In this document: one piece after another, positions 4,965 to 60,928 of the stretch | Layout of the letters: every line of letters begins with the position of its first letter | Numbering within the stretch: the stretch's first letter is position 1 | Origin: Candidatus Daviesbacteria bacterium | GTDB taxonomy: Bacteria; Patescibacteriota; Microgenomatia; Daviesbacterales; UBA10151 | Length of the DNA stretch: 64,000 nucleotides | Reading direction: 5' to 3' | NCBI GenBank assembly: GCA_028715175.1 | Contig: JAQUSJ010000001.1 | Span: forward strand, 674,386-738,385 | Translations under genes and position numbers: made by a program | The notes under the pieces: model-generated | Seen by the model: the letters and a program-made list of their open reading frames with translations, nothing else | Database searches by the model: none | Told to the model about the DNA's origin: nothing

Positions 4965-7712
4965 TCAAAACTGTTCTAAAAACTTTTTAATTTTATCCCT
5001 ATCCCTTTTTAGCCACTCTGCATTTGAATAAATTTGCTCCAGGGCTTGGGCGACAGTCCTCTTGGCTTCCGGCACAGGGTTTTTGGCAATAAAGTTTTCA
5101 ATATCAGAAGCATCTGAAACTTTTGTAAAATTACCCATTGGCAAAAAGATTCTGGGGAAGATATGTCCTCCGGCATATCTTTCTTTCAAGAGTTCCCAGT
5201 TCCTTTTGACAAACTCCCAAGCCAAGTACCGGCCCGCAGGATTATTCCAGACTGCTGCTATAATTTGCAATGAATTCTGGAACCTGACATGTTTGGAAAT
5301 GGCAAAATCCAAAGTCTTAGAAAGAAAAGTTTCGCTCTTAAATTTACCCAAAGCCCGACCAATTCTATCTTTCTCCTGCTGGTTATCTTCTTCTTTATAC
5401 ATCGCCATCAAAGTATCAAACTCTGTCTTTCCCCCATTTTCTGCTGCCAGATTATAGACAACACTCCGGAGATCCGGATCAATACTTTTGTCATTCTGAG
5501 GAGTCTTCGACGAAGAATCTCTCAACTTGTTTGAGATGTTACTGACATTCGTCAGAGATCCTTCACTACGCTCAGGATGACACAAAGAGGAAAATAGTTC
5601 CTGTGCTTTTTGGATTATCCCTTTATCACCAAAGGATCCCAATTTATACAAAACCAAACCACGAAGTAGTAAATCTGTATGTTTTTCCCCAGCCTTTTTC
5701 TGCCAGCCCATTTCTTTAACAATACTGCTAAAAATCTGCCTCCCGTAACTTCTAAAATTTTCGTAAAAAGGCTCATAGGCTAAAAGTGAATCTAACTCAC
5801 TCAAATGCTCTGTCAACACGCTCCAGACAGTGTAATCTTCTTCCGTTGCAAAAGATAAAGCCAGTTCTAAAGCCAAGCTCGTCGGCGAATCTCCGGACTT
5901 TGCCAGATCAAATGAGTCCCTAATCAAGCCTAACCTATCCGGTGCAGACAGTTTTCCATCTTTGATTGCCTCTTCCAGTCTTTTAAGATATTGCTGCGGA
6001 TAATCCACTCTGACTAAGGATGCTTCTCCTGCATTTAATTTAATCCATTCATTATCTTTAAGCCCTGGAAAGGTGATTGACTTTTTATCCATTAATAACC
6101 AGTTGTCATTGTGAGGATCCGGCGAAGCCGGAGACGAAGCAATCCGCCACGGCGGATCGCCACGCTTCGCTCGCGATGACATTATTTGTACTGGTATTGA
6201 CCAAACAGCATTATCTTTAGTTTCTTTTTTAGATATTGGACTTCCGAAGAATCTGGATTGAGTTAGCTGTAACCTGTTACCTGTAACCTGTAACCTTATC
6301 ACCGGATGACCTGGTTTTTGGGTCCAGTTCCTCATCAACTCTGCAACCGGTTTTTTAGACACCTCTGTTAAAGCTAGCCACAAATCTTCAGTCTTCGCAT
6401 TGCCATATGAGTGCTTCTTTAAATAATGTTGCAGCCCTTTTTGAAAAACTGCCGGTCCGAGATATGACATAAGCATGCGCAGAACCGATGCTCCTTTTGA
6501 ATAGCTAACCTTGTCAAAAATCTCGGAAATCTCTGCCGGATTACCAACTTCTACTTCAATCGGGTGGGTATTTTTCAAAGCATCCAAAGAGTAAGCAACT
6601 CCCATCTCCTCTGCCACAAATTGAGTCCAGATATCCCACTCAGGGAAAATATGATCTATAGCCAGATATTCAATGAATGAGGCAAACCCCTCATTAAGCC
6701 ATAAATGAGTCCACCACTCCATGGTTACCAAATCACCAAACCACATGTGGGCCAGTTCATGTGCAATCACCAAAGCTACCCATTGTTTATTGGCCGTGGA
6801 AGATCTTTCCTCATCAATCAAAAGCGTTGATTCACGGTAAGTAACAGCTCCCCAGTTCTCCATTGCTCCTGCGGCAAAATCAGGAATGGCTATCATATCC
6901 AACACCGGCAATGGATAGTCTATATCAAAATAGCCTTCGTAAAAATCCAGGCATTTCCTGGCTACATCCAAAGCAAACCTTGCTTGCTCTTTTTTTCCTT
7001 CAGTTGTAAAGACCCTTACCACTTTTCCCTTATCACTTTTCCCTTCCACATATTCAAACTCCCCCACAATAAAGGCCAAAAGATAGGTGGACATTTTGGG
7101 GGTGGGAGCAAATTCCACCATCTGATAACCGGATTCATGTTCTTTAACCACAGTTTCAATCGTATTTGATATGGCTGTGGTACCAGTTGGAATCATTAAA
7201 GTCACATCAAAAATAGCTTTCTGGGAAGGCTCATCAAAACAGGGAAAAGCCCGTCTGGCATCAGTTGATTCAAATTGGGTGGTAGCCAAATGTTTAGAAA
7301 TCCCCGCCATCTCGTATCGGGAACGGTAAAAACCTCTCATTTTATCGTTTAGGATTCCTTTAAAAATAAGTTTTAGCTTGCCTTTGCCCTTTTGGATTTG
7401 TTCTGGAAAAGTAAAAGTGGCTGTTTCCATTTCCTTGTTATACGAGATCTTTCCAGCCCAAATCTCTCTGTTGCCATGAATGAACTCAGCACTTTCTATT
7501 TCCAGTTCAATAGCATGGAGGGTAATTTGTTTAGTCGGCTTTTCCAGAGAGAGAAAAATTGTTTCCTCTCCGGTAAAGGTAAATTCATTCAAATCAGGCT
7601 TGAGCATGATTTTATAAGGAAATCTTGAAAACTCTCTTGAAAGGTTTACTTTCAAGCTTAGCTTATAACGCTCGGGCTTAACATGAGCCGAGAGCCTGAC
7701 ATTCTTTTTCAT
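4965..7712 (-). CDS. pepN: aminopeptidase N (M1 family zinc metallopeptidase), carrying in-frame repeat insertions
   Basis: GAMEN motif (AAGAMENWGAV) and HELAHMWFGDLVTMEWWTHLWLNEGFA (HEXXH-18-E). 915 aa. Contains palindromic element copies and a heptamer array (see repeats). Confidence 0.9.
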   Translation of the reverse strand: MKKNVRLSAHVKPERYKLSLKVNLSREFSRFPYKIMLKPDLNEFTFTGEETIFLSLEKPTKQITLHAIELEIESAEFIHGNREIWAGKISYNKEMETATFTFPEQIQKGKGKLKLIFKGILNDKMRGFYRSRYEMAGISKHLATTQFESTDARRAFPCFDEPSQKAIFDVTLMIPTGTTAISNTIETVVKEHESGYQMVEFAPTPKMSTYLLAFIVGEFEYVEGKSDKGKVVRVFTTEGKKEQARFALDVARKCLDFYEGYFDIDYPLPVLDMIAIPDFAAGAMENWGAVTYRESTLLIDEERSSTANKQWVALVIAHELAHMWFGDLVTMEWWTHLWLNEGFASFIEYLAIDHIFPEWDIWTQFVAEEMGVAYSLDALKNTHPIEVEVGNPAEISEIFDKVSYSKGASVLRMLMSYLGPAVFQKGLQHYLKKHSYGNAKTEDLWLALTEVSKKPVAELMRNWTQKPGHPVIRLQVTGNRLQLTQSRFFGSPISKKETKDNAVWSIPVQIMSSRAKRGDPPWRIASSPASPDPHNDNWLLMDKKSITFPGLKDNEWIKLNAGEASLVRVDYPQQYLKRLEEAIKDGKLSAPDRLGLIRDSFDLAKSGDSPTSLALELALSFATEEDYTVWSVLTEHLSELDSLLAYEPFYENFRSYGRQIFSSIVKEMGWQKKAGEKHTDLLLRGLVLYKLGSFGDKGIIQKAQELFSSLCHPERSEGSLTNVSNISNKLRDSSSKTPQNDKSIDPDLRSVVYNLAAENGGKTEFDTLMAMYKEEDNQQEKDRIGRALGKFKSETFLSKTLDFAISKHVRFQNSLQIIAAVWNNPAGRYLAWEFVKRNWELLKERYAGGHIFPRIFLPMGNFTKVSDASDIENFIAKNPVPEAKRTVAQALEQIYSNAEWLKRDRDKIKKFLEQF
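5489..5582. repeat. Family-A palindromic element, composite inverted pair (TGTCATTCTGAGG…GAAGAATCTC // GAGATCCTTCACTACGCTCAGGATGACA), in frame in pepN
   Basis: Read directly. Translated as …[30 protein letters not shown]… within pepN. Confidence 0.75.
6105..6182. repeat. Family-A palindromic element, second composite copy in pepN (GTCATTGTGAGGATCCGGCGAAGCC … GGATCGCCACGCTTCGCTCGCGATGAC)
   Basis: Read directly. Encodes …SRAKRGDPPWRIASSPASPDPHND… in frame. Confidence 0.75.
6267..6294. repeat. heptamer tandem array CTGTAAC x4 (one variant unit), in frame in pepN
   Basis: Read directly; encodes RLQVTGNRLQLTQ. Confidence 0.8.
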
Positions 7713-7754
7713 ATCGCTAGTTTAGCCTAAAAGCTGATATAATTCAATTTGAAA

Positions 7755-7837
7755 GCCGAGGTGGCGGAATGGTATACGCGATAGTCTCAAAAACTATTAG
7801 TCGCAAGGCTGTGAGGGTTCGACTCCCTCCCTCGGCA
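7755..7837 (+). tRNA. tRNA-Leu (anticodon CAA), type II with long variable arm, no encoded CCA
   Basis: Manual fold: acceptor GCCGAGG/CCTCGGC, D-arm GCG…CGC, anticodon stem ATAGT/ACTAT with loop CTCAAAA (anticodon CAA), variable arm AGTC…GGCT, T-arm GAGGG-TTCGACT-CCCTC, discriminator A. Confidence 0.85.
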
Positions 7838-7843
7838 CTCTTC

Positions 7844-9211: not shown

Positions 9212-9261
9212 AAAATATTTCCTGTCATTCTAAGGCGATTAGCCAAAGAATCTCTTGATTC

Positions 9262-9942: not shown

Positions 9943-10459
9943 GGCAAGTTGCATACTAACAAATATGCTAAAATTGTTCAATAAGCGAAGTTTTAAAACG
10001 GAGCTTACAAACTTGTTTATAATGATGCAACTTAATCGAAAACTCACTACAAAACATCTTATTCTTTCCCAGATTCTAATCTTGATCATAGGTTTAACAT
10101 TTCTGGGAACACTTTATTTCATTTTAAATATCCAATATCAAAAACCTAAAAACCTTTTCTTGGTTGGACCGGTTACTACTCTTCCCAAAAGCTTACTGCT
10201 GGATCTTGGGACGCCTGACCAGGATACCTTATCTTTTTCATCTTCAATAATTGTGTCCGGCAAAACAGGACCAAAAAAGGACGTCTTAATCTCAACTGAT
10301 ACCCGCGACCTTGTAATCCAATCAAAAGCAGACGGCTCCTTTTCTACGGTTTTGAATTTAGATGAAGGCGTTAATACAATCAAAGTCGTTGTTTTTGATA
10401 CAACAGGTGAGGCAAGGTCTGCTGAACGTACAGTTTACTTCTCAAAGGAGAAAATATGA
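9941..10459 (+). CDS. hypothetical membrane-anchored protein
   Basis: A TM helix (ILSQILILIIGLTFLGTLYFIL) followed by a soluble domain. Overlaps the next gene by ATGATGA. The true start may be downstream (MMQLNRK). Confidence 0.4.
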   Translation: MASCILTNMLKLFNKRSFKTELTNLFIMMQLNRKLTTKHLILSQILILIIGLTFLGTLYFILNIQYQKPKNLFLVGPVTTLPKSLLLDLGTPDQDTLSFSSSIIVSGKTGPKKDVLISTDTRDLVIQSKADGSFSTVLNLDEGVNTIKVVVFDTTGEARSAERTVYFSKEKI

Positions 10460-11196
10460 TGAGAAAATTTACAATTTTAATCGCAATTTTTGCTTTTTCA
10501 TTCTACATTCTACATTCTACATTCTACATTCCGAGCGCGCTAGCGCTTGAATCCACTCCATCCGCCGATATAAAAACCAAACTTGAAGAACTGAAAAAAG
10601 AGATTGCTTCCAAAGCCGCCAAACTGAAACAAGACGTTAACCGCAAGCTAAAAGATAAAGCATACATAGGTAAAATTAAACAAAAATCTGACAATTCTGT
10701 AACTATCTCAACAGCATCTAATCCAAAAATGGTCAGTTTAAATCAGGATACTGTCTTTGAGAGCAAGATTAAATCAAAACAAAAGTTTTCTCAGAAAACT
10801 ATCTCCGAAGAAGATTATGTTGCTGCGCTGGGAGATGCCGATGAAACCGGAGTGCTAACTGCAAAAAAAATTATTCTGCTACCCCAGCCAAAGACTGATC
10901 TGCCTCTGGCGGAAAAAACTTATTTATGGGGCCAGGTAATTTCTATTTCGGATCAGTTGGTAACCTTAAAAAATAGCGAATCAAAGGTTGTTGCCGTATC
11001 TTTACCTTCTGTGTCTGGAATCAAATTAAACACCTTTGTTATATTAACAGGAAATCAAGACAAAAATGATATTTTTAAAGCTGGTTTTGTCTATATAATA
11101 CCCCAGGGCGGAGTTATTAAACCTAAAAAGATGGCAACGCCTTCTGCACAAACTGCCAGCCCGTCTGCTAAACCTGCCTCCAAAAAAGCTAACTAA
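10456..11196 (+). CDS. hypothetical secreted protein (signal peptide, lysine-rich, low complexity)
   Basis: N-terminal hydrophobic signal, partly encoded by a heptamer array, then a K/S/A-rich sequence. No domain recognised. Confidence 0.45.
   Translation: MMRKFTILIAIFAFSFYILHSTFYIPSALALESTPSADIKTKLEELKKEIASKAAKLKQDVNRKLKDKAYIGKIKQKSDNSVTISTASNPKMVSLNQDTVFESKIKSKQKFSQKTISEEDYVAALGDADETGVLTAKKIILLPQPKTDLPLAEKTYLWGQVISISDQLVTLKNSESKVVAVSLPSVSGIKLNTFVILTGNQDKNDIFKAGFVYIIPQGGVIKPKKMATPSAQTASPSAKPASKKAN
10499..10531. repeat. heptamer tandem array CATTCTA x4.7, in frame in the signal-peptide region
   Basis: Read directly; encodes FSFYILHSTFYIP. Confidence 0.8.
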
Positions 11197-14285: not shown

Positions 14286-15251
14286 TTGTCATCGAGGGGT
14301 ATAATAATAATCAATCCTATGAATAATTATATAGAGGAACAGATAAATAAATTAGATAAACAAATCGAGGAGATCAAACCACTTCTGCAGGATCCTGAAA
14401 TGGCTGATCTGGCCAAGGGAGAAATTAAAGATCTAGAACAGCAAAAAGCAGAATTAGAGTCATCAGCTTTCAGCTTTCAGTCGTCAGAAAATTCAGAAAG
14501 TCTGACAGCTGACAGCGAAGCGATACTGAAGACTGACAGCTGTATTCTAGAAATCAGGAGTGCTGCCGGAGGCGACGAGGCCGGACTTTTTGCCGGTGAT
14601 TTATTGCGGATGTACACAAGATTTGCTCAAAATAAAGGGTGGAAAGTTGAAGAATTAGACCGGTCTGAAGGAAAACTGGGGCAAGTGAAAGAAATTGTAC
14701 TCAAACTTTCAGGTAAGGGTTCATACAGCCATCTTAAATATGAATCCGGTGTTCACCGGGTACAAAGAGTACCCGTTACAGAATCCTCGGGTAGAATTCA
14801 CACCTCAACAGCCACAGTAGCAGTGCTCCCTGAAATTACCGATGCTCAAGTTACCATAAATCCCTCTGATATAGCATTTGAAGCTTTCCGCTCCGGTGGT
14901 GCTGGCGGCCAAAATGTTAATAAGGTTTCTACTGCCGTAAGGCTTACTCATATCCCAACCGGAATCATTGTAACCTGTCAAACCGAGAGATCACAACTCC
15001 AAAATAGAGAAAATGCCCTAAGTCTCCTTCGATCTAAGCTTTGGGAGGCAGAACAACAAAAAAAGACTGGCAAAGTTATGGAACAAAGAGCTGTTCAAGT
15101 AGGATCTGGTATGAGATCGGAGAAAATTAGAACATATAATTTTCCTCAAAACAGAGTAACCGATCATAGAATCAACAAATCATGGCATAATCTGGACAAT
15201 ATATTAGAGGGGGATCTGGATGACATCATCAAAGCCATATCAGTATGTTAA
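14286..15251 (+). CDS. prfA: peptide chain release factor 1
   Basis: [18 protein letters not shown] (PxT tripeptide region, RF1-type) and GGQ motif ([27 protein letters not shown]). The start may be the Met at 14319. Confidence 0.9.
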
Positions 15252-15909
15252 AGGTTACACTGAATTTTACAAACTAAGATTCAAGGTTACACCCGATACT
15301 TTAATACCCCGCCCTGAAACAGAACTTTTAGTAGACGAAGTACTGCGCTTTGTTTCCCAACTACAACCTACAACCTACAACCTACAACCTATTACCATCC
15401 TCGATCTTGGAACCGGTGCCGGTAATATAGCTATTTCTGTTGCCAGGAATGCTCCTGATATAAAAATCATCGCTACTGATATATCTGTTGCTGCCTTAAG
15501 AATAGCCAAATATAATGCTAAACGCCATGGCGTAGAAGACAAAATAGAATTTATCCAAAGCGATTTACTTTCTGGTTTAAACTATACCCTACACCCTAAA
15601 CCCCATACCCTAATCATTGTTACAAACCTCCCTTATATCCCAACTGAGCGAATTCCTTATCTTGACTCATCTGTGAAAGATTTCGAACCGCACGTTGCTT
15701 TAGACGGCGGGGAAGACGGTTTTGAACTTTATAGAAAATTATTTAGTCAAATTAAAGAAAAATCCTGGCAGCCAAAATTAATCATCGGAGAAATTGACTA
15801 TACTCACGGCGAACTGGCGGTAAATGAATCTCAAAAATATTTTCCCTATTCGCAAATTGAAACTAAAAAAGACCTGGCTCACAAACAGAGAATATTACTG
15901 ATTAGTTAA
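15220..15909 (+). CDS. prmC: release-factor glutamine N5-methyltransferase (PrmC/HemK), N-terminally short
   Basis: IPRPETE motif, SAM-binding LGTGAGNIA and catalytic NLPY (NPPY variant). Overlaps the prfA 3' end. Contains a heptamer array. Confidence 0.8.
15361..15390. repeat. heptamer tandem array CTACAAC x4, in frame in prmC
   Basis: Read directly; encodes [13 protein letters not shown]. Confidence 0.8.
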
Positions 15910-20508: not shown

Positions 20509-21036
20509 CTAGAATGGAAGATCGTCTTTAACTTCTTCTTGAGGGGGAGTTTCTTCCTGGGAGACTTCAGTTTCTTTCTTTGCTGATTTAGCTTCATCCT
20601 CTATCTTTTCTTTAACTGTAACTTTCTCTTCTGGTTCTGTCTCCTCTGTCTTGGCATGTTCTGCTTCCGCATCCTCTGGCGTTGCCGCCGTTTCTCCAAA
20701 ATTTTTGGGGGTCAATATGATCATATCTTCTACTACAATTTCCGTACTCTGCCTCTGAGTACCGTCCTGCGCTGTCCAGGATCTGGTTTGCAACCTGCCG
20801 GAAATAAATACCCTCATACCTTTTTTAAGCAGTTGATTACAAAGCTCTGCCAACTTATTCCAGGCTACTAATTTATGAAAATCTGCCTCTTCTTTACGCT
20901 CACCTTCTGTAACATAAGTTCGGTTAGTAGCCATACCGAAAGTAACAACTGCAGCACCATTTGGGGTATATCGAAGTTCGGGGTCCCTTGTTAAATTGCC
21001 TATAAGTTCAACTCTATTCCAAGATCTTGAAGCCAT
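20509..21036 (-). CDS. ssb: single-stranded DNA-binding protein
   Basis: OB-fold N-terminus (MASRSWNRVELIGNLTRDPELRYTPNGAAVVTF…) and acidic C-terminal tail …DDLPF. Confidence 0.9.
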   Translation of the reverse strand: MASRSWNRVELIGNLTRDPELRYTPNGAAVVTFGMATNRTYVTEGERKEEADFHKLVAWNKLAELCNQLLKKGMRVFISGRLQTRSWTAQDGTQRQSTEIVVEDMIILTPKNFGETAATPEDAEAEHAKTEETEPEEKVTVKEKIEDEAKSAKKETEVSQEETPPQEEVKDDLPF

Positions 21037-21093
21037 CTATCTTCCACCTTCCATCTTCAAAAGTCTATCTTCTACTTTCCATCATCTATCGTC
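21035..21093. repeat. Family-C element pair (CATCTATCTTCCACCTTCCATCTTC … TCTATCTTCTACTTTCCATCATCTATCGTC) between ssb and rpsF
   Basis: Read directly. Encodes the rpsF C-terminal …IRR plus its TAG stop, and carries the ssb SD and start region. Confidence 0.65.
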
Positions 21094-21367
21094 TGATCAA
21101 AAGATAACGCAATACATCTTCTTCTACTTTTAAGCTTTTGTCAAGACCTTTTGCGTCTTTGGGATCTGCTTGAATTTCAAAATGAGCATAGTAACCGGAG
21201 GTTTGCTTATTTATAGGATAAGCCAAAGCCCTCACTCCCCAAAGGTCTTCCTTTTCCATCTTGCCATCTTTCCCTACCAATTTTTTACTGATGGAATCCA
21301 AAAGAGCTTTTCTAACTTTTTCTTCCAAATCCGGCTTTAAAACTAATGTTAAATAATATGAATTCAT
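21086..21367 (-). CDS. rpsF: 30S ribosomal protein S6
   Basis: MNSYYLTLVLKPDLEE…YAHFEIQADP… Lies in the classic rpsF-ssb-rpsR arrangement. Confidence 0.9.
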   Translation of the reverse strand: MNSYYLTLVLKPDLEEKVRKALLDSISKKLVGKDGKMEKEDLWGVRALAYPINKQTSGYYAHFEIQADPKDAKGLDKSLKVEEDVLRYLLIRR

Positions 21368-39206: not shown

Positions 39207-39682
39207 TTTTTCGCTTTTTCCTCCACATCCTCTACCAATTTCTTTTTATATGCCGCAATTTTTTCTTCCAAATTTTTATCAGAAGTTGCTAAAATTTGTA
39301 CTGCTAAAAGCCCAGCATTTTTGGCGCCATTAATAGCAACTGTTGCAACAGGCACTCCCGGCGGCATCTGCATAGTTGACAAAAGTGAATCTACCCCGTT
39401 TAATGTTCCACTTTGTATTGGAACCCCAATTACCGGCAAAGGAAACTCTGCTGCTATAACCCCTGCCAAGTGCGCTGCCATTCCTGCGCCGGCAATTATA
39501 ACTTTTACTCCTTCTGTTTTCGCTTTTTCTACCAACTCTTTAGTTCTTTCCGGAGAGCGATGAGCTGAAGAAATTGTCATTTCATACTCCACCCCAAACT
39601 CATCTAAAACTTTGCCGGCATTACACATCACTTCTAAATCAGAATCCGAAGCAGCGATAACGAGCACTTGCACGCTTTTCAT
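39176..39682 (-). CDS. purE: N5-carboxyaminoimidazole ribonucleotide mutase
   Basis: …VLVIAASDSDLEVM…TISSAHRSPERT…VIIAGAGMAAHLAGVIAAEFPLPVIGVPI… is a canonical PurE. Confidence 0.9.
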   Translation of the reverse strand: MKSVQVLVIAASDSDLEVMCNAGKVLDEFGVEYEMTISSAHRSPERTKELVEKAKTEGVKVIIAGAGMAAHLAGVIAAEFPLPVIGVPIQSGTLNGVDSLLSTMQMPPGVPVATVAINGAKNAGLLAVQILATSDKNLEEKIAAYKKKLVEDVEEKAKKIATSLHSSQ

Positions 39683-41088
39683 ATTCTTTTTATTATATCA
39701 ACCAATTCTAAAGACTTTTTTGCGGCATTACCAACATGATTTTTAGCATTCAATATCTCTGTAACTTCTATTGGTTTTAAATATTTTCTTATTTCGGAAT
39801 TTTCCGAAATCAAATCTTCCATCGGATTTGGATTTCCATCCTGGACACTTTCCCAAGCCCTCATGGAAATTTCTCGGAGTATTTCATGGATTTTTTGCCG
39901 ATCTGCACCTTTCTTAACTGCTTCTAAAATAATTCCTTCTGTGGCAGAAAACGGCCAGTAAATATCCAAATTTTTCCTTATTCGTTTATCGTTTATCGTT
40001 AAACTCTCAATAATATTTTTTGCAGAAGTTAACATCTCATCCGTTGCCAAAAACATTTCCGCACTAACTACTCTTCTGTTAGCCGAATCATCTAAGGTCC
40101 GCTCCAACAAAGTCTGGGAGGCATTATCCCAAGATACCCGTGACAGAGCAGCTACCAGTCTTGCGAGTGAACAAATCTGCTCGGATTTTATCGGGTTTTT
40201 CTTAAAAGGCATGGCCGATGAACCAACTTGCAAACTACCAAAAGGCTCCTGCCATTCACCGAATCCGGGTGATTGTATAATCCTTAAATCAAAAGCAAAT
40301 TTATTTAGAGACTGGGCAATAGATGCTAACAAATTCCCAATCCAAACTTCTATTTTTCGCGGAGCGGTTTGGTTGGTAATACTAGCCGCCTTAATTCCTA
40401 AATCCCCCATTACTTCATTTTCTAACTCATTCGCTCTACTTTCATCCAATAACTTTACGAAACTGGCTCCGGTCCCGACTGCCCCTTTTATCCCCTTGCT
40501 CTTTAAATTCTTTTTAACGAATTGTAAAAGTTCTAAATCCATTAACAAATCCTGTGCATAAAAAGCAAACCTGTATCCTAAAGTCGTAGGTTCAGCGGGT
40601 TGCAGATGAGTATATCCCATACAAGGTAGTTCCGCATATTTTTCAATTTTTTCTCCGAATACTTTTAGTAATTTTTGCAAATTATTTTCCATCAAATTCA
40701 AAGCTTCGGAAACTCTGATGGTTTCCGCATTATCCGAAATATCCATACTGGTGGCACCAAGGTGAATTTTTCCTCCGCCGACTTTAGCTTTTTCTGCAAA
40801 TTCTCTAATTGCCGCAACAACATCATGATTAGTATCTTTCTCTATTTCCCAAATCCTTTCAATATCTATATTATTCTGATTGTCTTCCAGATCTTTAAGT
40901 TCTTCTTTTGATACCAAACCCTCTTTTGCCTGGGCCCTTGCCAGAGCAACCCAAATCTTTCTCCAGAGTTTATATTTGTTTTCTTCAGAGAATATCGCCC
41001 TCATCTCCTCTGACCCATATCTCCAAGAGAAAGGGCTTTGGTAGCTATCATAGTTTTGACATTTGACATTTAAGTTTTGAGTTTTCAT
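39679..41088 (-). CDS. purB: adenylosuccinate lyase
   Basis: Fumarate-lyase fold with signature SSAMPFKKNP. 469 aa. Confidence 0.9.
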   Translation of the reverse strand: MKTQNLNVKCQNYDSYQSPFSWRYGSEEMRAIFSEENKYKLWRKIWVALARAQAKEGLVSKEELKDLEDNQNNIDIERIWEIEKDTNHDVVAAIREFAEKAKVGGGKIHLGATSMDISDNAETIRVSEALNLMENNLQKLLKVFGEKIEKYAELPCMGYTHLQPAEPTTLGYRFAFYAQDLLMDLELLQFVKKNLKSKGIKGAVGTGASFVKLLDESRANELENEVMGDLGIKAASITNQTAPRKIEVWIGNLLASIAQSLNKFAFDLRIIQSPGFGEWQEPFGSLQVGSSAMPFKKNPIKSEQICSLARLVAALSRVSWDNASQTLLERTLDDSANRRVVSAEMFLATDEMLTSAKNIIESLTINDKRIRKNLDIYWPFSATEGIILEAVKKGADRQKIHEILREISMRAWESVQDGNPNPMEDLISENSEIRKYLKPIEVTEILNAKNHVGNAAKKSLELVDIIKRI

Positions 41089-47805: not shown

Positions 47806-48590
47806 GGCTTTGCCTCCTTAACAAACTTTACAATGTTTTCAAACAAAGGTAAACCTTGTGGTTTTGTAATATTTCCCCTTCGCCAGTTTGGGTGCTGTTC
47901 CACCCGGACAAAACATTCAGGATGCGGCATCATCCCTAAAATCCTGCCTGTTGTATCTGTTATTCCTACTATCGAATTTAAGGAACCATTTGGATTTTCT
48001 GGATATTCCATTGTTGGATTTCCATTTTCATCAACATATCTGAATGCCACTAAATTTTGATCTTCAATTTCTTTTAGAATTTCCTCATCGGCAATAAATT
48101 TACCTTCGCCATGGGCAATCGGCAACCAGATTATTTCATTATCCATTTCTCTCAAAAATTGGCTGTTATTTTTATTATTAACTTTAACTTTTATCCATCG
48201 GCATTCAAAATGTCCCGAATCGTTATTTGTTAAACTAACTCTCATTTTTCCAATTTCTCTAAATGGCAAAAGACCAGTCCTAACTAAAACCTGGAAACCA
48301 TTACAAACTCCCAAGATGGCAGTATTTTTTCGTTCAATAAATTTCTGCAATTCTTCTTTAAAAAATGAAGTTAGCTCAATTGCCAAAATTTTTCCGGAAA
48401 CTATGTCGTCCCCATAGGCAAAACCGCCGGGCAAAGCAAGAATTTGATAATCCTTCAGTTTTACAGAACCGTCTCTTAATTGATTTACATGCACTATTTT
48501 TGAATCCCCGCCGGCAATCTTAAAAGCATAAGCCATCTCTTCGTCTCTATTTGTCCCATCTGCTTTTAAAACTAAAACTTTTGGTTTCAT
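47802..48590 (-). CDS. purQ: phosphoribosylformylglycinamidine synthase, glutaminase subunit
   Basis: MKPKVLVLKADGTNRDEEMAYAF… and GVCNGFQ (class I GATase Cys). 262 aa. Confidence 0.9.
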   Translation of the reverse strand: MKPKVLVLKADGTNRDEEMAYAFKIAGGDSKIVHVNQLRDGSVKLKDYQILALPGGFAYGDDIVSGKILAIELTSFFKEELQKFIERKNTAILGVCNGFQVLVRTGLLPFREIGKMRVSLTNNDSGHFECRWIKVKVNNKNNSQFLREMDNEIIWLPIAHGEGKFIADEEILKEIEDQNLVAFRYVDENGNPTMEYPENPNGSLNSIVGITDTTGRILGMMPHPECFVRVEQHPNWRRGNITKPQGLPLFENIVKFVKEAKP

Positions 48591-51466
48591 GAAAACATCT
48601 CCTTCATTGGTTTCTGCCAGACTTTTTTCAAATTTGGAACTTCCGCACTAAAGAAATTCTTAACATCAATAATAGGAGCTTTTTGTGTTTTACCTAAAGT
48701 TATGTAAGGAATATTTTTGAATAATTGTTTGGCAACTTTTTCATCTTTCACCTCAACAATAAAACATCCTGTTGTCTCATTAAATAGCAACTCACTCACC
48801 TCCGAGGAACCCATTCGGCCACCTCGGAGGTGTGACGAAGTTACTCCTCCGAGGTGGATATTTACCCCGCAATTTCCCCCAACACACATCTCAAAAATAG
48901 CTGAAATTACCCCACCTTCAGATATATCATGACATGACAATATTTGTCCATTTCGTATTCCCTTGTAGATTGCATCAAAAGTTTTTGGCAGTAACTTTAG
49001 GTCTATTCTTGGAACAGAATCTGTCTCCAGATTATTTACTTGATGATATACAGATCCTCCTAAATTCTTATCCATTTCCCCAACCAAAACAATTGTTGAA
49101 CCGACCTTTTTCAAATCGGCAGTAACAGTCTTTCTTGTATCCTCTATTTTCCCTAGAACCGAAATGCAAAGCGTTGGTGGAATTTTAATAACGCTTCCAT
49201 CTGCCCCACGGTAAGTTGAAGACAGGCTATCTTTACCGGAAATCACCGGAATTTTAAAAATTTTCATAAAATCCACCACCGCATCAACTGATCTATCAAG
49301 CGACCAAAGAGACTCTTGATCTGGAAAAGGCCAAATATAATTGTTTATTAAAGAAGCATTTTTGTAGTCTCCGCCAACTGCGACAAAATTTGATAAGGCT
49401 TCAGTCGCTGCCCAGATACTTCCCCAGTATGGATCTATATTATTAAAAACCGGATTTAATCCGTGTGAAATAATCATGCCATATTGTTTGGAAAGTACGG
49501 GACGCAAAACCGGAGAATCATTAGGCCCATCTAAATTTTTTCCTGAATATGGCTGAAGGTCATTTGTTCCCTGAACTAAATGGTCATACAACCGGACAAT
49601 TGGCTCTTTTGAACAGACATTTCCGTGAGATAATACTTTTCGCAAAACCTTGATCCATTCTTCCTCTGATTTTGGTTGTATTGGTTCTTTGATCTGACGA
49701 CTGACGACTGACGACTGACGACTTGCTTTCAAAACCCGTTTCGGCAACCCATGGTGCAAAAACTGCATATCCAAATGGCCCACTACTTTACCACCAAAAT
49801 AAACTTTTAATTTTTTACTGCCATCAAATTTTCCTAAAACCGTACTTTCAACATTATATTTTTTACAGATCATTTCAAAAACCTTAAGGTTTTTCGGATC
49901 CAATACTACAATCATTCTTTCCTGTGATTCTGACAAAAAAATTTCCCAGGGAGCTAAACCTTGATATTTTAAAAGGGCATTTTTTATGTCAACCGTAACT
50001 CCTAAAGTTTCACCAATCTCGCCAATGGCAGATGAAAATCCTCCTCCGCCGCAATCTTGCACTAACCTTATTAAATCTTGATCTCTTGCTTCAAGCAGCG
50101 CATCAAACATCCGTTTTTCTTCAATTGCGTTTCCGATTTGCACTGCCGAAGAGTGTGTCGTATAAGTATCTGCAGTCATTTCCCCGGACGAAAAGGTAGC
50201 ACCATGAATCCCATCCCTGCCAGTTCTACCCCCTACACAAATTATTAAATCATTTCTTTCAGGTTTATCTTTTATCGCATATTTTTTTGGCACTATTCCA
50301 TATGCTCCTACAATAACCGTTGGTCTAGCCCTAAAATCTTTGTGAAAATGGACTGATCCGTTATTAGTAGGAATCCCCATTCTGTTTCCGTAATCCCTTA
50401 CCCCTGAAACTACTCTTTTCAATAAATATTCCGGTGGAAGACATCCTGCTGGTAACTGGGAAGCCGGCAAATCAATCGGAGCAAAACAAAAGATATCTGT
50501 TGAGGCAATATTTTTGGCTCCTTTACCTGTTGCAGCAATGTCGCGGAACACTCCGCCTGATCCGGTCATCGCTCCACCATATGGCTCAATAGCTGATGGA
50601 GCATTATGGGTTTCGACTTTACCACAAATCCCAAAACCGCCGTAGAAATCCATCACACCCGAATTGTCAACAAATGCTGAAACAATATTTTTATCATGCT
50701 TTAGCGCTTCTTTTTTCAATCTATCAATGAGCGGCTCTTTCTTTTTTCCATCAACTAATAACTCAGCTTTAAAAGTTTTATGCCCCGAGTGTTCACTCCA
50801 AGTTTGGGCTAAAGTTTCCAGTTCTAAATCAGTGGGGTCCCTTTTTTCTGCTGCAAAATATTCTTGGATCTTTTTCATCTCTTCCAAATTAAGAAAAAGC
50901 TGATCTTTAGATAAATCCCGCAACTCTTGATCATTCAAACTTCTTATAGGAATTGTTTGAATTTTGCCAGGTTGTCCTTTCAAAATAAGCGTTTGCGGCT
51001 CATCTTTCACGATATGCTCGATAAGCGAGTTATAGAGTTTCAGTTTTTCTACGATCTTTTCGACTTCTGCTTTTTTTAAGCTTCCGTAAAATGCATACTC
51101 AAAGGATGAATCGCATGCCGGCAGTTTAATTCCCAAATCATCTGCAGCTTTGATAATGGATGTAACTTCCGGATTCATCACCCCTGGCTTGTAAGCTATT
51201 TCAATAATCACAGACTTCACCTCCGAGGTGGGCTTTGACTCCTCGGAGGTGGAATTAATCGTATATCTTTGATTAATTGATTCAGATAATAATTTTTCAG
51301 CCAAAATTTTGGCCTCTTTTTCAGATATTCCTTCCAATCTATAAACTTTGATCGCAGAAACTCTGGTAATATTTTTAATTCCCAACATCCGATGGATGTC
51401 ATTTAAGATACCATCTCCTTTTAAATCTGGTCCAACTATTGTTTGTACTCTGACTTTTTGTATCAT
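48587..51466 (-). CDS. purL: phosphoribosylformylglycinamidine synthase: tandem PurS-PurS N-terminal domains fused to PurL (FGAM synthase II)
   Basis: Two PurS-like ~75-aa modules at the N-terminus, then a small-PurL body. 959 aa. Family-B palindromes in frame at 51218..51252 and 48797..48857; heptamer array at 49694..49721. Confidence 0.9.
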   Translation of the reverse strand: MIQKVRVQTIVGPDLKGDGILNDIHRMLGIKNITRVSAIKVYRLEGISEKEAKILAEKLLSESINQRYTINSTSEESKPTSEVKSVIIEIAYKPGVMNPEVTSIIKAADDLGIKLPACDSSFEYAFYGSLKKAEVEKIVEKLKLYNSLIEHIVKDEPQTLILKGQPGKIQTIPIRSLNDQELRDLSKDQLFLNLEEMKKIQEYFAAEKRDPTDLELETLAQTWSEHSGHKTFKAELLVDGKKKEPLIDRLKKEALKHDKNIVSAFVDNSGVMDFYGGFGICGKVETHNAPSAIEPYGGAMTGSGGVFRDIAATGKGAKNIASTDIFCFAPIDLPASQLPAGCLPPEYLLKRVVSGVRDYGNRMGIPTNNGSVHFHKDFRARPTVIVGAYGIVPKKYAIKDKPERNDLIICVGGRTGRDGIHGATFSSGEMTADTYTTHSSAVQIGNAIEEKRMFDALLEARDQDLIRLVQDCGGGGFSSAIGEIGETLGVTVDIKNALLKYQGLAPWEIFLSESQERMIVVLDPKNLKVFEMICKKYNVESTVLGKFDGSKKLKVYFGGKVVGHLDMQFLHHGLPKRVLKASRQSSVVSRQIKEPIQPKSEEEWIKVLRKVLSHGNVCSKEPIVRLYDHLVQGTNDLQPYSGKNLDGPNDSPVLRPVLSKQYGMIISHGLNPVFNNIDPYWGSIWAATEALSNFVAVGGDYKNASLINNYIWPFPDQESLWSLDRSVDAVVDFMKIFKIPVISGKDSLSSTYRGADGSVIKIPPTLCISVLGKIEDTRKTVTADLKKVGSTIVLVGEMDKNLGGSVYHQVNNLETDSVPRIDLKLLPKTFDAIYKGIRNGQILSCHDISEGGVISAIFEMCVGGNCGVNIHLGGVTSSHLRGGRMGSSEVSELLFNETTGCFIVEVKDEKVAKQLFKNIPYITLGKTQKAPIIDVKNFFSAEVPNLKKVWQKPMKEMFS
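48797..48857. repeat. Family-B palindromic element cluster (CACCTCCGAGG / CCACCTCGGAGGTG / CCTCCGAGGTGG), in frame in purL
   Basis: Read directly; encodes …HLGGVTSSHLRGGRMGSSEVSE…. Confidence 0.75.
49694..49721. repeat. heptamer tandem array CTGACGA x4, in frame in purL
   Basis: Read directly; encodes …SRQSSVVSRQ…. Confidence 0.8.
51218..51252. repeat. Family-B palindromic element (CACCTCCGAGGTGGG-N8-CCTCGGAGGTGG), in frame between the two PurS modules of purL
   Basis: Read directly; encodes …TSEESKPTSEVKS…. Confidence 0.75.
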
Positions 51467-52802: not shown

Positions 52803-52803
52803 A

Positions 52804-57012: not shown

Positions 57013-57664
57013 TGATGTGTTTTAACATTTCTTCCACCGTTTGCTCAACTGTCAAATCTGAATTGTCTATCACAACTGCATTTTCCGGAACCCTCAAAGG
57101 AGATACCTCTCTTGTCGTATCTTTTTGATCCCTTTCTTTCATAGCTTTTAAGACGTCTTCATATCTTACATTAGAATCTTTTTTAACAAGTTGCTTAAAA
57201 CGCCTGTTGGCTCTGATTTCTACGTTGGCAGTTAAATAAAATTTATGTTTTGCATCGGGGAAAATTTCCGAACCGATATCTCTTCCTGTCATAACCGTAT
57301 TTTTGGAATGAACTAATTTATATTGTATTAGCTTTGTTACCTCACGTACTTGTCTGATTGCAGAAACAGCAGGAACTATTCCAGTCACTTCCGGATCATG
57401 TAAGCTTTCAGTTATATCCTCACCGTTTGCCAAAAACCTTGGCTGTCCATTTTGTTTAACCTCTATCTGAAGATTTTTAAAAACTCCAACTAACTTTTCT
57501 AAATCATCCAAAGGGATTTTATTCCGCAGAATGAAAATGCAACCGGCCCGGTAAATGGAACCAGAATCAATATATTGATAACCTAATTTTTGAGAAAGTA
57601 AAAATCCGACGCTATTTTTGCCGGAAGAAGTTGGCCCATCAATAGTTATAACTTGCATTTCCAC
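56999..57664 (-). CDS. cmk: cytidylate kinase
   Basis: MEMQVITIDGPTSSGKNSVGFLLSQKLGYQYIDSGSIYRA… (P-loop and CMP-binding region). Confidence 0.85.
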   Translation of the reverse strand: MEMQVITIDGPTSSGKNSVGFLLSQKLGYQYIDSGSIYRAGCIFILRNKIPLDDLEKLVGVFKNLQIEVKQNGQPRFLANGEDITESLHDPEVTGIVPAVSAIRQVREVTKLIQYKLVHSKNTVMTGRDIGSEIFPDAKHKFYLTANVEIRANRRFKQLVKKDSNVRYEDVLKAMKERDQKDTTREVSPLRVPENAVVIDNSDLTVEQTVEEMLKHINAPN

Positions 57665-57679
57665 TAATTTTTAAGTTTA

Positions 57680-59080
57680 TCACAACTTACTAATAATTCT
57701 AGGACCAGCTGAGGTATCCTCTATCTCATATCCTAATTTTTTGATTCTGTGACGGAGTTGATCAGATTCTTTAAAATTACCTGCTTTTCTGGCTTGCTCC
57801 CGCTTTTCAACCAATTCCATCACGTTTTTAGGGACTTCTATTGATTTGCCTAAATATTCATCTAATTTTAATCCCAAAATTTTATCCATTTCCAAAATAC
57901 TTTTGGCTTTGGCAGATGTTGGACACTCGGATCTAACCATATCCCACATCACAGCCAGTGCTTGTGGCATATTTAAATCATAATTTAGCGCATCCATAAA
58001 TTTTTGATAATAAGATTGCCACGCCCCTTCGGGGCTCGCAATGACAGAAGAAGGTAAATCTCGGATAATCTCCCTTAAATTATCCAAGGCATTTTGGGCT
58101 GCCTCCAAACTTTTCCAGGTAAAATTTAATTTATCTCTATAATGGGCTGTTAAAAACAAGTACCTGAGAGCCAGTGGGTCAAATCCTTTCTGTTCTATTT
58201 CATCTATTTTATAAAAATTCTTTTTTGATTTACTCATTTTTTCTCCATCAACCAATAAAAATTCAAAGTGCACCCAGAATCTTACAAACTGCTTTCCTGT
58301 AGCTGCCTCACTTTGAGCAATCTCATTTGTGTGATGTACTGGAATATGATCAATACCTCCTGTATGAATATCAAGGCAGTCATCCAGATATTCCATACTC
58401 ATAGCAGAGCACTCAATATGCCAGCCGGGAAATCCCTCGCCCCAGGGAGACGGCCACCTCATGCTATGGTCTTTAAAATGCCCTACTGTAAAAAACCAAA
58501 GCGCAAAATCATACGGGTTTTTCTTTTGCTTATCTACCACCACATCAACCCTTACTCCAACTTGCTTTTCCTGCAATTTTTGTCCTGATAATTCTGTATA
58601 GTTTGGAAATTTACTTATATCAAAATAAACTGCCTGGTCTGTTTGATAAATAAAACCGTTTTTTTCTAACTTATGAATTAATTTAATCTGTTCTGCAATA
58701 TGATCTGTAGCTTTAGCAACAATACTTGGTCTTTCTATATTAACCGTATCAACCGATTTCCAAAAATAATCTTCAAAGAATTTGGCAACTTCCCAGACAG
58801 TTCTACCGAATTCCCTTGCTCCTTTTTCCATTTTATCCTCACCCGAATCTTCGTCAGAAACCAAATGTCCCACATCAGTGATATTCATCACATGTTTAAC
58901 TTCATATTTATTAGCTTCCAGAATTCTTCTTAAAATATCGTTGCCTACATATGTACGAAGGTGACCAATATGGGTATAGTCGTAAACAGTTGGTCCGCAA
59001 GAATACATACCCACCTTAGGTGGATTTAAAGGAGCAAATTTTTCAATCTTTCGGCTTAATGTATTATAGAGGTTTAACAT
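57680..59080 (-). CDS. cysS: cysteine--tRNA ligase
   Basis: HIGH (YTHIGHLRTYV), KMSKS (KMSKSKKN), zinc-binding Cys (YSCGPTVY) and the CysRS anticodon-binding C-terminus. 466 aa. Confidence 0.9.
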   Translation of the reverse strand: MLNLYNTLSRKIEKFAPLNPPKVGMYSCGPTVYDYTHIGHLRTYVGNDILRRILEANKYEVKHVMNITDVGHLVSDEDSGEDKMEKGAREFGRTVWEVAKFFEDYFWKSVDTVNIERPSIVAKATDHIAEQIKLIHKLEKNGFIYQTDQAVYFDISKFPNYTELSGQKLQEKQVGVRVDVVVDKQKKNPYDFALWFFTVGHFKDHSMRWPSPWGEGFPGWHIECSAMSMEYLDDCLDIHTGGIDHIPVHHTNEIAQSEAATGKQFVRFWVHFEFLLVDGEKMSKSKKNFYKIDEIEQKGFDPLALRYLFLTAHYRDKLNFTWKSLEAAQNALDNLREIIRDLPSSVIASPEGAWQSYYQKFMDALNYDLNMPQALAVMWDMVRSECPTSAKAKSILEMDKILGLKLDEYLGKSIEVPKNVMELVEKREQARKAGNFKESDQLRHRIKKLGYEIEDTSAGPRIISKL

Positions 59081-59086
59081 TCCTTC

Positions 59087-59491
59087 CTACCCTCCTACTC
59101 CTCTTTTGAACTCGGCCTTTCCGGCATAAAAAGTTGCCGGATTAATAGGCTGGTTTTTCTTTTGTTCTTTTTTTATTTCAATAACTTGTTTTTCTTGCTG
59201 TTGAGTTTGTAACTTCTGCATTTCTTTTTGTTTATTTTGCTGCCTTACTGCTTTTTGTTCCTGATCTATTTTTTGATAAAAGGCAATTTTTCGTCTTGCC
59301 TCTGTCAATTTTTTTTGATCTTCCAATTGTTTTTGTTGAATTTGTTGAGGAGTTAGTTGTGTTCCAACTACGGATTGCACCCCTTGTTCCAAAGCCTCTC
59401 CCACTGAATCCTTAACATCTTTTGCAACTTCACCAGCTGCTTGGGCTACTTCTCCGCCAAATTGTTTAATAGCATTTCCACCATCAGCCAT
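59087..59491 (-). CDS. hypothetical Q/K-rich coiled-coil protein
   Basis: 134 aa, low complexity (…QQIQQKQLEDQKKL…KQKEMQKLQTQQQEKQ…). 6 bp downstream of cysS. Confidence 0.4.
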   Translation of the reverse strand: MADGGNAIKQFGGEVAQAAGEVAKDVKDSVGEALEQGVQSVVGTQLTPQQIQQKQLEDQKKLTEARRKIAFYQKIDQEQKAVRQQNKQKEMQKLQTQQQEKQVIEIKKEQKKNQPINPATFYAGKAEFKRGVGG

Positions 59492-59508
59492 GAATACATT
59501 CTAGCATA

Positions 59509-60105
59509 TTAATACTCTTTTCTTCCCTCCAGCGCCCTAGATAAAGTTGTCTCGTCCGCATATTCCAGATCAGATCCAACCGGCAACCCCCTGGCAATTC
59601 TTGTTATTTTTACTCCTAAAGGTTGAATCAATCTTTGAATATACATGGCAGTTGCCTCTCCTTCCATGGTCGGATTTGTGGCCAAAATTATTTCCTTAAC
59701 AGCGCCGCTTTTAAGTCTTGGCAAAAGTTCTTTAATATGAATTTCCGATGGACCGATATTTTCTAAAGGAGAAATTACTCCATGTAAAACATGGTAAAGT
59801 CCTTTAAAATTTGCTTTTTCCAGCGCCAATACATCCAACGGATCCTCTACGATAGCGATCACCGATGCATCACGGGAGGAATCGGAACAAATCTGGCATT
59901 GATCTTCTTCTCCAACGTTAAAACAAATTGAACAGATTTTCGTTTTCTCTTTCATTCCAACAGCAGCTTCGGCCAAAGCTTTTGCTTCTTCTAAAGGTGC
60001 ATGCAAAAGATAGTAAGTGAGTCTTTGAGCAGTCTTCGGTCCAATGCCGGGGAGTCTTTCAAATGCCTCAATTAAATTTTGTACAGACTTTGGAACTTGC
60101 GCCAT
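59509..60105 (-). CDS. recR: recombination protein RecR
   Basis: HhH (LPGIGPKTAQRL), C4 zinc finger (CSICFNVGEEDQCQIC), Toprim domain. 198 aa. Confidence 0.9.
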   Translation of the reverse strand: MAQVPKSVQNLIEAFERLPGIGPKTAQRLTYYLLHAPLEEAKALAEAAVGMKEKTKICSICFNVGEEDQCQICSDSSRDASVIAIVEDPLDVLALEKANFKGLYHVLHGVISPLENIGPSEIHIKELLPRLKSGAVKEIILATNPTMEGEATAMYIQRLIQPLGVKITRIARGLPVGSDLEYADETTLSRALEGRKEY

Positions 60106-60156
60106 TTCGAAGCCAATTTTACCAAGTATATTGTATTATGTATAGTGTATATAGGG

Positions 60157-60528
60157 ATGCAAGAAAAAATTCAATCTTTTACTGATCTAAATGCCTGGAA
60201 AGAAGCTCATAAATTAGCTCTGTTAGTTTATAGATTAACTAGTGATTTTCCTATCAGCGAAAAATACTCTTTAATTGATCAAATGAGACGAGCTGCTGTA
60301 TCAATTAGTTCCAATATCGCAGAAGGATTTTCAAGACAAAGCAATAAAGAAAAACTTCAATTTTATTATACTGCCAAAGGATCTTTAACTGAACTGCAAA
60401 ATCAACTATTGCTAAGCCAAGATATTGGCTACATTAAAAAGGATATTTTTAACAAAATCGCGGAGCAAACAGTAGTAGTTGGAAAATTATTAACAGGCTT
60501 AATTAAAGCAATCAAATCCCGTTCTTGA
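60157..60528 (+). CDS. four-helix-bundle protein (23S rRNA intervening-sequence protein family)
   Basis: …DQMRRAAVSISSNIAEGFSRQSNKEKLQFYYTAKGSLTELQNQLLLSQDIGYI… is characteristic of this family. Start set to the internal Met. Confidence 0.75.
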   Translation: MQEKIQSFTDLNAWKEAHKLALLVYRLTSDFPISEKYSLIDQMRRAAVSISSNIAEGFSRQSNKEKLQFYYTAKGSLTELQNQLLLSQDIGYIKKDIFNKIAEQTVVVGKLLTGLIKAIKSRS

Positions 60529-60567
60529 CCCAATATACTTTATACTCTATACGCTATACTAATTTGG

Positions 60568-60846
60568 TCACATTCCAGGAATACCCATACCACCCATTAA
60601 ACCTTTCATTTCATCAGCTGCAACTTTTTGGGATTGTTTTAATGCTTCATTAACAGCCTCTGTAACTTTATTTGGATCCATATCCCCTGAAATCGATTGA
60701 ACTTTTTGATCCGCAGTCATTACAACAGTGACGCCTTTGTGTTCAATTGTAATCTTGATCCCTGCCAGTTTCTTTTGCACTTCCATTGCCTGATCTCTCA
60801 TCTTTTTGAGATCCCCAAGCTGTTTTAGATTATCCATTATTCCCAT
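60568..60846 (-). CDS. ybaB: nucleoid-associated protein YbaB/EbfC
   Basis: MGIMDNLKQLGDLKKMRDQAMEVQKKLA…VTVVMTADQKVQSISGD… plus C-terminal MGGMGIPGM. Confidence 0.85.
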   Translation of the reverse strand: MGIMDNLKQLGDLKKMRDQAMEVQKKLAGIKITIEHKGVTVVMTADQKVQSISGDMDPNKVTEAVNEALKQSQKVAADEMKGLMGGMGIPGM

Positions 60847-60900
60847 AATTAGTTATTGGTTGGTAGTTATGAGTTCGTAGTGATTTATTATTTTTTCTAT

Positions 60901-60928
60901 GAACTACGAACTATGAACTCTGAACCCT
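60901..60928. repeat. heptamer tandem array GAACTMY x4 at the 3' end of folD
   Basis: Read directly. Encodes the folD C-terminal …RRVQSS and its TAG stop. An inverted partial copy (GAGTTCGTAG) lies at 60871..60880. Confidence 0.8.

Follow-up and report, generated by a model that had tools for sequence, protein, structure and literature searches.

Short tandem arrays, in which a unit of seven bases is repeated about four times, are spread over a stretch of 64,000 nucleotides from a genome of Candidatus Daviesbacteria (GenBank assembly GCA_028715175.1, contig JAQUSJ010000001.1, positions 674,386 to 738,385 of the forward strand; hereafter, the window), and several of them are found in frame within housekeeping genes such as pepN, prmC and purL. 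These heptamer arrays are a property of the whole lineage, not an oddity of the five genes in which they were first noticed: they are specific to period 7, consist of heterogeneous units, are depleted in open reading frames (ORFs), lie in loops and similar sites when they are inside genes, and occupy slots that are conserved across species while the units in them turn over. It is fairly probable that they are lineage-typical heptanucleotide microsatellites, generated by misalignment and homogenization with a bias for seven bases and filtered by selection for reading frame, for the absence of stop codons and for tolerant sites. On the best reading, the arrays are mutational by-products, not devices.

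The material consisted of the 64-kb window and 2.4 Mb of related loci (denoted by L numbers below), not of a whole genome. Array sites were checked by direct reading of the sequence and with Tandem Repeats Finder (TRF), and both confirmed all five arrays of the original prediction, namely those in pepN, a gene for a secreted protein, prmC, purL and folD. That count was too low: prmC has a further array, purB has two, prfA has decayed ones, several more are intergenic, and the folD array is accompanied by an inverted partner. The excess is confined to period 7. Perfect runs of at least three copies occur three times in the window at period 7 and never at periods 5, 6 and 8-16; when arrays need only reach 80% identity over four units, nine qualify at period 7 and none at periods 5, 6 and 8-12. 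TRF returned 20 period-7 rows for the window vs. 2.4 in dinucleotide shuffles, with the other periods close to expectation. The window together with the Daviesbacteria-like loci (575 kb) contains 14 perfect runs of four or more copies at period 7 and not one at periods 4-6 and 8-15. Per 100 kb, the window and these loci have 14-16 period-7 arrays, compared with 1-6 in more distant members of the Candidate Phyla Radiation (CPR), while periods 8-10 are practically empty in all CPR sets compared. The common origin that had been supposed for the five arrays, in place of independent accidents, is thus borne out in the sense that they belong to a lineage-wide and strictly period-7 class. The arrays identified in the window are as follows.

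6267-6296, minus strand: CTGTAAC x4.3 with one mismatch, in the gene for a pepN-like M1 aminopeptidase (4965-7712, minus strand); the coding-strand unit is AGGTTAC, and RLQVTGN-RLQ is encoded.
10499-10531, plus strand: CATTCTA x4.7, perfect, in ORF 10456-11196 with a signal-peptide-like N-terminus; encodes FYILHST-FYI, just ahead of ...SALA/LESTPSAD.
14463-14542, plus strand: two adjoining decayed arrays (TCAGCTT x2.6 and a CTGACAG type) in the N-terminal region of prfA (14286-15251).
15361-15391, plus strand: CTACAAC x4.4, perfect, in prmC (15220-15909); encodes a 10-residue loop.
15582-15610, plus strand: second prmC array, decayed (CTATACC, CTACACC, CTAAACC, CCATACC); 11-residue loop ahead of the NLPY strand.
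21036-21094, no strand assigned: degenerate array x8.4 with 63% matches, filling the whole spacer from the rpsF stop to the ssb start.
39971-40002, minus strand: 17 of 21 matches, in the adenylosuccinate lyase gene purB (39679-41088); encodes LTINDKRIRKN.
41055-41085, minus strand: 17 of 21 matches, at the 5′ end of purB.
49694-49723, minus strand: CTGACGA x4.3, perfect, in a purS-purL fusion gene (48587-51466, minus strand); the coding-strand unit is AGTCGTC, and SRQSSVV-SRQ is encoded.
60126-60151, plus strand: GTATAAT-like intergenic array directly upstream of the inferred ATG (around 60153) of a gene for a 23S rRNA intervening-sequence (IVS) protein (listed ORF 60079-60528, plus strand).
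60531-60561, minus strand: intergenic array (AGTATAG, CGTATAG, AGTATAA, AGTATAT) where ybaB and the IVS-protein gene converge, inverted with respect to 60126-60151.
60850-60885, minus strand: inverted partner of the folD array (ACTACGA, ACTCATA, ACTACCA and so on), reported by TRF with period 14, ahead of a ybaB/ebfC-like gene (60568-60846, minus strand).
60897-60929, minus strand: imperfect folD array (GGTTCAG, AGTTCAT, AGTTCGT, AGTTCAT, AG) with 18 of 21 matches at offset 7; folD itself is located at 60911-61753.

Host genes were named by NCBIfam scans, in which PrmC and PurL passed the curated cut-offs, and PepN and FolD are clear homologues whose scores fall below the equivalog cut-offs. 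The best relatives of the window aminopeptidase and PurL are 60-73% identical and come from metagenome-assembled genomes (MAGs) of Candidatus Daviesbacteria or Microgenomates. Many of the closest relatives (L001-L080) carry the title "uncultured Gammaproteobacteria bacterium" (binchicken co-assemblies); their genes are Daviesbacteria/Microgenomates-like, and the titles look mislabelled. The closest relative compared was L161 (GCA_028712705.1), with about 86% identity in the prmC flanks, and L162 is identical to it. For variation in copy number at the strain level, exact look-ups of window proteins and a metagenome scan, whose best relative had at most 73% identity, yielded no near-identical strain.

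Because 7 and 3 have no common factor, a coding array is read in all three frames, giving a period of seven residues followed by three more, and, as pointed out originally, gain or loss of one or two units would break the frame. The genic arrays sit at permissive sites, i.e., loops, linkers and signal peptides. In the aminopeptidase, the array fills the place of ten residues that are freely variable among CPR orthologues, with no difference in length from the array-free ones. The first prmC array encodes a loop between a helix (32-47) and a strand (58-63), which is coil with a lowered pLDDT (68), and the shortest orthologues have 6-8 fewer residues in this segment. The second encodes coil just before the strand at 130-135 (pLDDT around 70); the motif NYTL.P.PYTL is widespread among orthologues in this slot, and P0002, the closest relative there, has an insert like a palindromic element instead. 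The purL array occupies a linker of variable length. The purB array at 39971-40002 is also present in the L105 orthologue (LTINDKRITKN), and its length equals that of array-free orthologues. In general, the sites in purL, pepN, prfA and the signal peptide are length-variable regions, where relatives accept other small inserts as well.

Long ORFs contain 59% of the arrays vs. 91% of random segments (p = 1e-29), and the density of arrays is about 7-fold higher outside them than inside; this depletion points to selection against arrays in coding sequence. Intergenic arrays often start at a stop codon and finish at the next start codon. As for the units, 102 arrays gave dozens of different, A-T-rich heptamers, with neither a common motif nor a common flank. 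A shared unit motif was sought and none emerged from these arrays; for example, CT[AG], considered as a possible primase site, is present on the plus strand in all five of the window units, yet in four of ten units in relatives, and was rejected.

Comparison of orthologues revealed that the sites are more durable than the sequences in them: the orthologues keep an array at the same site, with a similar length and often with a different unit. About 20 Daviesbacteria-like orthologues of the aminopeptidase have a period-7 array at the same site, with units such as AGGTTAC (window), AGGGTAC/AGGGGAC (L018), AGTGTAA x2 plus AGTTCAA x2 (L048) and AAGGGGA (L025). In the signal-peptide slot, arrays that directly precede the conserved ...AAESTPSAD consist of CATTCTA (window), ACGAACT (L048), TACCCTA (L066), TCACCCT (L007 and L017) or ACATTTT (L008 and L012), the orthologue units being CTACGAA, CCTATAC, CTTCACC and TTTACAT in the other register; the array of L161 there reads CTTGCTA, CTTGCTA, CTTTCTA and CATACTA. 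The PurL linker units are AGTCGTC (window and L083), AATTTCA (L095), CAAAAGT (L108) and GAATTCA/GAGTTCA (L085); an array is also found in L082, L081 has eight units vs. four elsewhere, and other relatives have palindromic inserts. A uniform array of AGGGTAC x4 in L105 stands against heterogeneous units of equal total length in L111, which speaks for concerted evolution. In prmC, the array of L161 is equal in length to that of the window and differs by two substitutions.

The identity among units differs between slots. In the signal-peptide slot, it is 88% within an array, 53% between the same positions of different species and 52% between other positions, a hallmark of concerted evolution or of recurrent renewal. 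The corresponding values for the aminopeptidase are 75, 73 and 69%, which is consistent with an old array retained by selection at the protein level. Copy number also differs by whole units among relatives (L002/L005; L081; L008/L012): L002 and L005 have a non-coding array whose length is exactly one unit (7 bases) greater in one than in the other, and the signal-peptide array is ACATTCT x4.7 in the window vs. ACATTTT x5.3 in L008 and L012. The array in the spacer between rpsF and ssb is mostly absent in L161, where the called genes for SSB (ends at 15886) and S6 (begins at 15893) are 6 bases apart. Both this absence and the 7-base difference between L002 and L005 point to single-unit slippage where frame is irrelevant.

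Among perfect arrays, the number of units hardly varies. Over the 2.4 Mb, perfect period-7 runs in ORFs number 19 at 29-33 bases, two at 37 and five at 21-28, and each of the 22 perfect arrays of at least 29 bases comprises four full units plus 1-5 bases, except for one five-unit orthologous pair. The gap at 21-28 bases in ORFs is significant by comparison with arrays outside ORFs (Fisher p = 0.017). Arrays of 5, 6.7, 7.4 and 8 units also exist, and degenerate ones of 5-8 units occur outside long ORFs. The preference for about four copies, which the original prediction had drawn from five cases, therefore holds over 2.4 Mb of related genomes. Because a gain of three units amounts to 21 bases, equal to seven codons, the four copies are most readily ascribed to a frame filter.

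These observations can be brought together in the following scheme. Misalignment during replication or repair in this lineage would strongly favour a 7-base register, a bias that Mrázek (2007) proposed for bacteria generally. Such misalignment could amplify any local heptamer, and neighbouring units would stay alike by concerted evolution; slippage and conversion would thus be the molecular process, and selection would act as the filter. A coding array would survive only if the tract keeps the frame, its unit is free of stop codons in each of the three frames read, and the site is tolerant, such as a surface loop, an inter-domain linker, a signal peptide or a gene end. A unit with a stop codon would be possible only at the 3′ end of a gene, as in folD. 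As a result, conserved slots of housekeeping enzymes would carry an arbitrary peptide of about ten codons, seven plus three.

Several points weigh against this scheme of biased misalignment and selective filtering. Most of the array alleles differ from array-free orthologues by 0 or +2 residues, not +7, and only the prmC slots approach +6 to +8 residues. A mode of 30-32 bases is also seen outside long ORFs (11 of the 23 arrays there that reach 23 bases, with 1-2 mismatches allowed; a small sample), where frame is irrelevant, so the four-unit size is only partly explained by a frame filter. The model of one unit plus three more, a gain of 21 bases, was rejected as a full account on these two grounds; it is a partial explanation that fits the gap at 21-28 bases in ORFs and the prmC slots. 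Simple slippage, moreover, can hardly make units alike at a constant length; the path would lead through frameshifted intermediates or a conversion-like step, neither of which was seen. Unit pairs from unrelated regions fall within one mismatch of each other in 9.8% of cases vs. 3-5% in composition-matched controls, which hints at constraint or preferred units. Finally, identical perfect arrays are found amid strongly diverged flanks: TCACCCT x4.3 in L007 (6474-6503) and L017 (5096-5125), and ACATTTT x5.3 in L008 (6121-6157) and L012 (4521-4557). The orthologous proteins in both pairs are about 57-60% identical, and the surrounding signal-peptide regions have diverged. Identical arrays in such pairs would be unexpected for neutral DNA, and the comparison suggests constraint, convergent homogenization or exchange.

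Other explanations have to be set beside biased misalignment. That the arrays are products of chance or of assembly can hardly be entertained, because the excess of period 7 over shuffles and over all other periods is extreme, and because dozens of MAGs and metagenome contigs, from different projects and with different naming schemes, have in-frame arrays of this kind at matching sites. Tracts of 30 bases fit within typical sequencing reads. Contingency or phase-variation switches, which the original prediction had put forward, would work by frequent single-unit slippage, with pepN, prmC, purL and the secreted protein alternating between off and on states and with assemblies showing the in-frame majority. 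In keeping with this, the arrays are perfect and their unit length is not a multiple of three, the concerted evolution in the signal-peptide slot would imply continuing turnover, and a single-unit path to four identical units would need out-of-frame intermediates; the repeat in the signal-peptide region of a secreted protein also recalls the opa genes of Neisseria. Yet housekeeping enzymes make up four of the five hosts, the tracts are short at four units, and none of 170 arrays in 160 related loci is at a frameshifted host gene. The array length in prmC is kept in L161 despite about 14% divergence of the flanks, arrays are depleted about 7-fold in ORFs, and similar arrays are common in intergenic regions, where no switch is possible. 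On these grounds, switches are quite improbable. Only slightly more credit can be given to functional cis-elements, in which four heptamers form a platform that an oligomeric or multi-domain protein, such as one with cold-shock or S1-type OB (oligonucleotide/oligosaccharide-binding) folds that take about 7 bases each, would bind on DNA or mRNA, and selection would maintain both length and internal identity. This would fit the four-unit length in ORFs and spacers alike, the perfect arrays kept amid diverged flanks in L007/L017 and L008/L012, the recurrence of unit families in unrelated genes, the many intergenic arrays that adjoin stop or start codons like TAACTGA in Beggiatoaceae and TTTTGAA in Nostoc, and the inverted pairs that make hairpins after folD. 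The units are, however, too diverse for one recognition sequence and are depleted in ORFs, close relatives fill the same slots with unrelated palindromic inserts or with nothing, and point mutation decays many arrays; cis-elements are accordingly a rather improbable account.

A dedicated writing of tracts comes close to the templated insertion of the original prediction. Here, repair or template switching would swap about 30 bases in one step for four copies of a local heptamer without changing the length. The 22 perfect arrays of four units plus 1-5 bases, the near lack of perfect three-unit arrays in ORFs, the net length close to neutral against orthologues and the four-unit mode outside ORFs all speak for it. 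On the other hand, no candidate enzyme came up (the genes scanned at 53.4-63.1 kb include no reverse transcriptase), non-coding arrays do differ by single units, arrays of 5 to 8 units exist, and a period-7 excess is known from many unrelated bacteria; this proposal is unlikely. Insertion by a nuclease or a diversity-generating process, as first suggested, fares no better: the units are heterogeneous and without common motif or flank, the median gain is +2 residues, not +7, and no reverse transcriptase was found by Pfam scans of 15 proteins, including those of the genes at 53.4-63.1 kb (cysS, recR, cmk, glyA, purF, etc.). A diversity-generating retroelement was also rejected since the arrays are tandem repeats, not pairs of template and variable repeats; the sole related hit in these scans was the bAvd-like match of the IVS protein, which is below the cut-off. 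Somewhat less doubtful, but still speculative, is a more general form, i.e., a fixed-size and length-neutral process that repeatedly overwrites about 30 unconstrained bases in loops and spacers with four local heptamers, re-homogenized in each lineage. If true, a gene-conversion-like or template-switching mechanism undescribed for bacterial microsatellites would operate here, and it would provide a steady supply of new ten-residue segments in essential enzymes.

The folD-ybaB-recR region shows how arrays combine outside the body of a gene. The folD stop codon TAG (60911-60913) falls within the array, which gives the last residues and the stop, with about 1.5 units being coding; as the unit contains TAG, the array is restricted to the gene end. 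It pairs with the inverted array 15 bases downstream to form a predicted hairpin of -18.1 kcal/mol (z = -3.45; matched by 0 of 200 shuffles). A different inverted heptamer pair (ATCGTAT... / AAACGAT...) likewise follows folD in L099 and L111. The hairpin between folD and ybaB is possibly a terminator or processing site made of heptamer arrays. Structured RNA was rejected as an account of the arrays in the folD-recR spacers, because Rfam and ARAGORN gave a tRNA-Leu at 7755-7838 as the sole RNA match. The IVS-protein gene (PF05635, 129 bits; a weak bAvd-like match is below the cut-off) is located between ybaB and recR, on the opposite strand. Flanked by the inverted TATAAT-like arrays at 60126-60151 and 60531-60561, it looks like a small inserted cassette. 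An array in L099 and L111 at 649-680 (GTATAGAGTATAAAGTATAAT) resembles the one at 60531-60561 in sequence.

Besides the heptamer arrays, small palindromic (hairpin) elements are found in frame within housekeeping genes, such as CACCTCCGAGG...CCTCGGAGGTG, which occurs twice in purL (peptide ...HLRGG...SEV...). They were located at the following places.

48797-48857 and 51218-51251: palindromic elements in purL of the window.
6139-6160 (approximate): palindromic element in pepN of the window.
purL linker of relatives: palindromic elements in L084, L086, L092, L094, L087/88, L093, L099/L111/L140, L097/L100, L101, L102, L105 and L158.

In relatives, these elements use the slots of the window's heptamer arrays, namely the purL linker, the N-terminal region of prfA and the second slot of prmC. 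For example, prfA of L161 has a palindromic element (CACCTCGGGGGTGG...CCCCCGAGGTGG) where the window has its heptamer arrays. Such in-gene elements recall the Rickettsia palindromic elements and the small dispersed repeats of Nostoc nested in heptamer arrays. PurL is also extended at its N-terminus by about 190 residues, which match PurS weakly (NF005019), making a PurS-PurL protein of 959 residues, and full-length alignments with the relatives suggest that the extension is shared. In addition, a perfect 21-base repeat x3.5 (CTGCTATCAACTTCGTCTATC) is present at 4727-4799 within a 130-residue coiled-coil ORF (4546-4938, minus strand); its unit is as long as three heptamers or seven codons and is itself not 7-periodic.

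If the arrays are by-products of biased misalignment, a known but poorly understood 7-base bias reaches a high density in a tiny and gene-dense CPR genome and is thus pushed into coding DNA, where it would write arbitrary ten-residue loops into PurL, PrmC and aminopeptidase N. Slots with lineage-specific units would then form a natural experiment on protein sites that tolerate random peptides and on microsatellite evolution under a frame constraint. The four-unit size and the near-neutral net length suggest a trait of replication or repair that ordinary slippage models do not predict. The arrays would also account for odd low-complexity inserts in alignments of CPR proteins, and they may serve as strain markers. 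Among the top full-text matches, no literature on heptamer or simple-sequence repeats (SSRs) in CPR, Patescibacteria, Microgenomates or Daviesbacteria was found.

Heptameric repeats are over-represented among the SSRs of many bacteria, according to two papers that both cite Mrázek (2007) for this (PMC4692102; PMC4679880). As a cause, it is proposed there that the polymerase holds about 7 bases of DNA and that slippage in this register would be favoured accordingly (PMC4692102; PMC4679880). The arrays described here resemble the SSRs of Mrázek (2007), as far as these are summarized in the citing papers, in their tandem head-to-tail 7-base units, in an excess specific to period 7 over shuffles and neighbouring periods in both the 64 kb and the 2.4 Mb of relatives, and in the many units per genome. 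Unlike those SSRs, within the limits of the same summaries, they belong to an uncultured CPR host, reach about 15 arrays per 100 kb with over half in frame within genes, are nearly always of four units when perfect, and sit in slots conserved across species.

Among individual cases, short tandemly repeated repetitive (STRR) heptamers are known from Calothrix and Nostoc (Mazel 1990, as cited in PMC4692102). Other known heptamers are GGGAATC in Xanthomonas and TTTTGAA and GGGGA(T/C)T in Nostoc PCC 7120, and the known examples are mainly intergenic. Like the cyanobacterial STRR and Nostoc arrays, those in the Daviesbacteria lineage are dispersed tandem heptamers of several unit families, often beside start codons, and the A-T-rich TTCAAA-type units of Nostoc resemble the commonest units here (AAATTTC, AATTTTC). 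The STRR consensus units are CCCCAGT, TTGGTCA and CAACAGT. None of the three is in the unit lists from the 102 arrays and the perfect arrays. Cyanobacterial arrays are mainly intergenic with up to tens of copies (26; PMC4692102), whereas the arrays here are coding-heavy with about four.

The TAACTGA repeats of Beggiatoaceae occur as 2-6 tandem copies near start codons with one dominant unit, and they are thought to be a regulator binding site, possibly spread horizontally (PMC4679880). Similarly, many arrays here adjoin start or stop codons, and units containing a stop are confined to overlaps with gene ends; in contrast to the single dominant unit of Beggiatoaceae, there are dozens of unrelated units. 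With the phase-variable loci of Haemophilus and Neisseria (PMC2651432, PMC8262952), the arrays share a repeat in coding DNA, a unit length not divisible by three and, in one case, a location in a signal-peptide region. The tracts of those loci are longer and strain-polymorphic in copy number, and their hosts are surface or restriction genes (PMC2651432, PMC8262952), none of which was shown here, where pepN, prmC, purL, folD, purB and prfA are housekeeping genes and only ORF 10456-11196 looks secreted. The new aspect is a coding-heavy form of known heptamer repeats, in a CPR lineage where they occur at high density.

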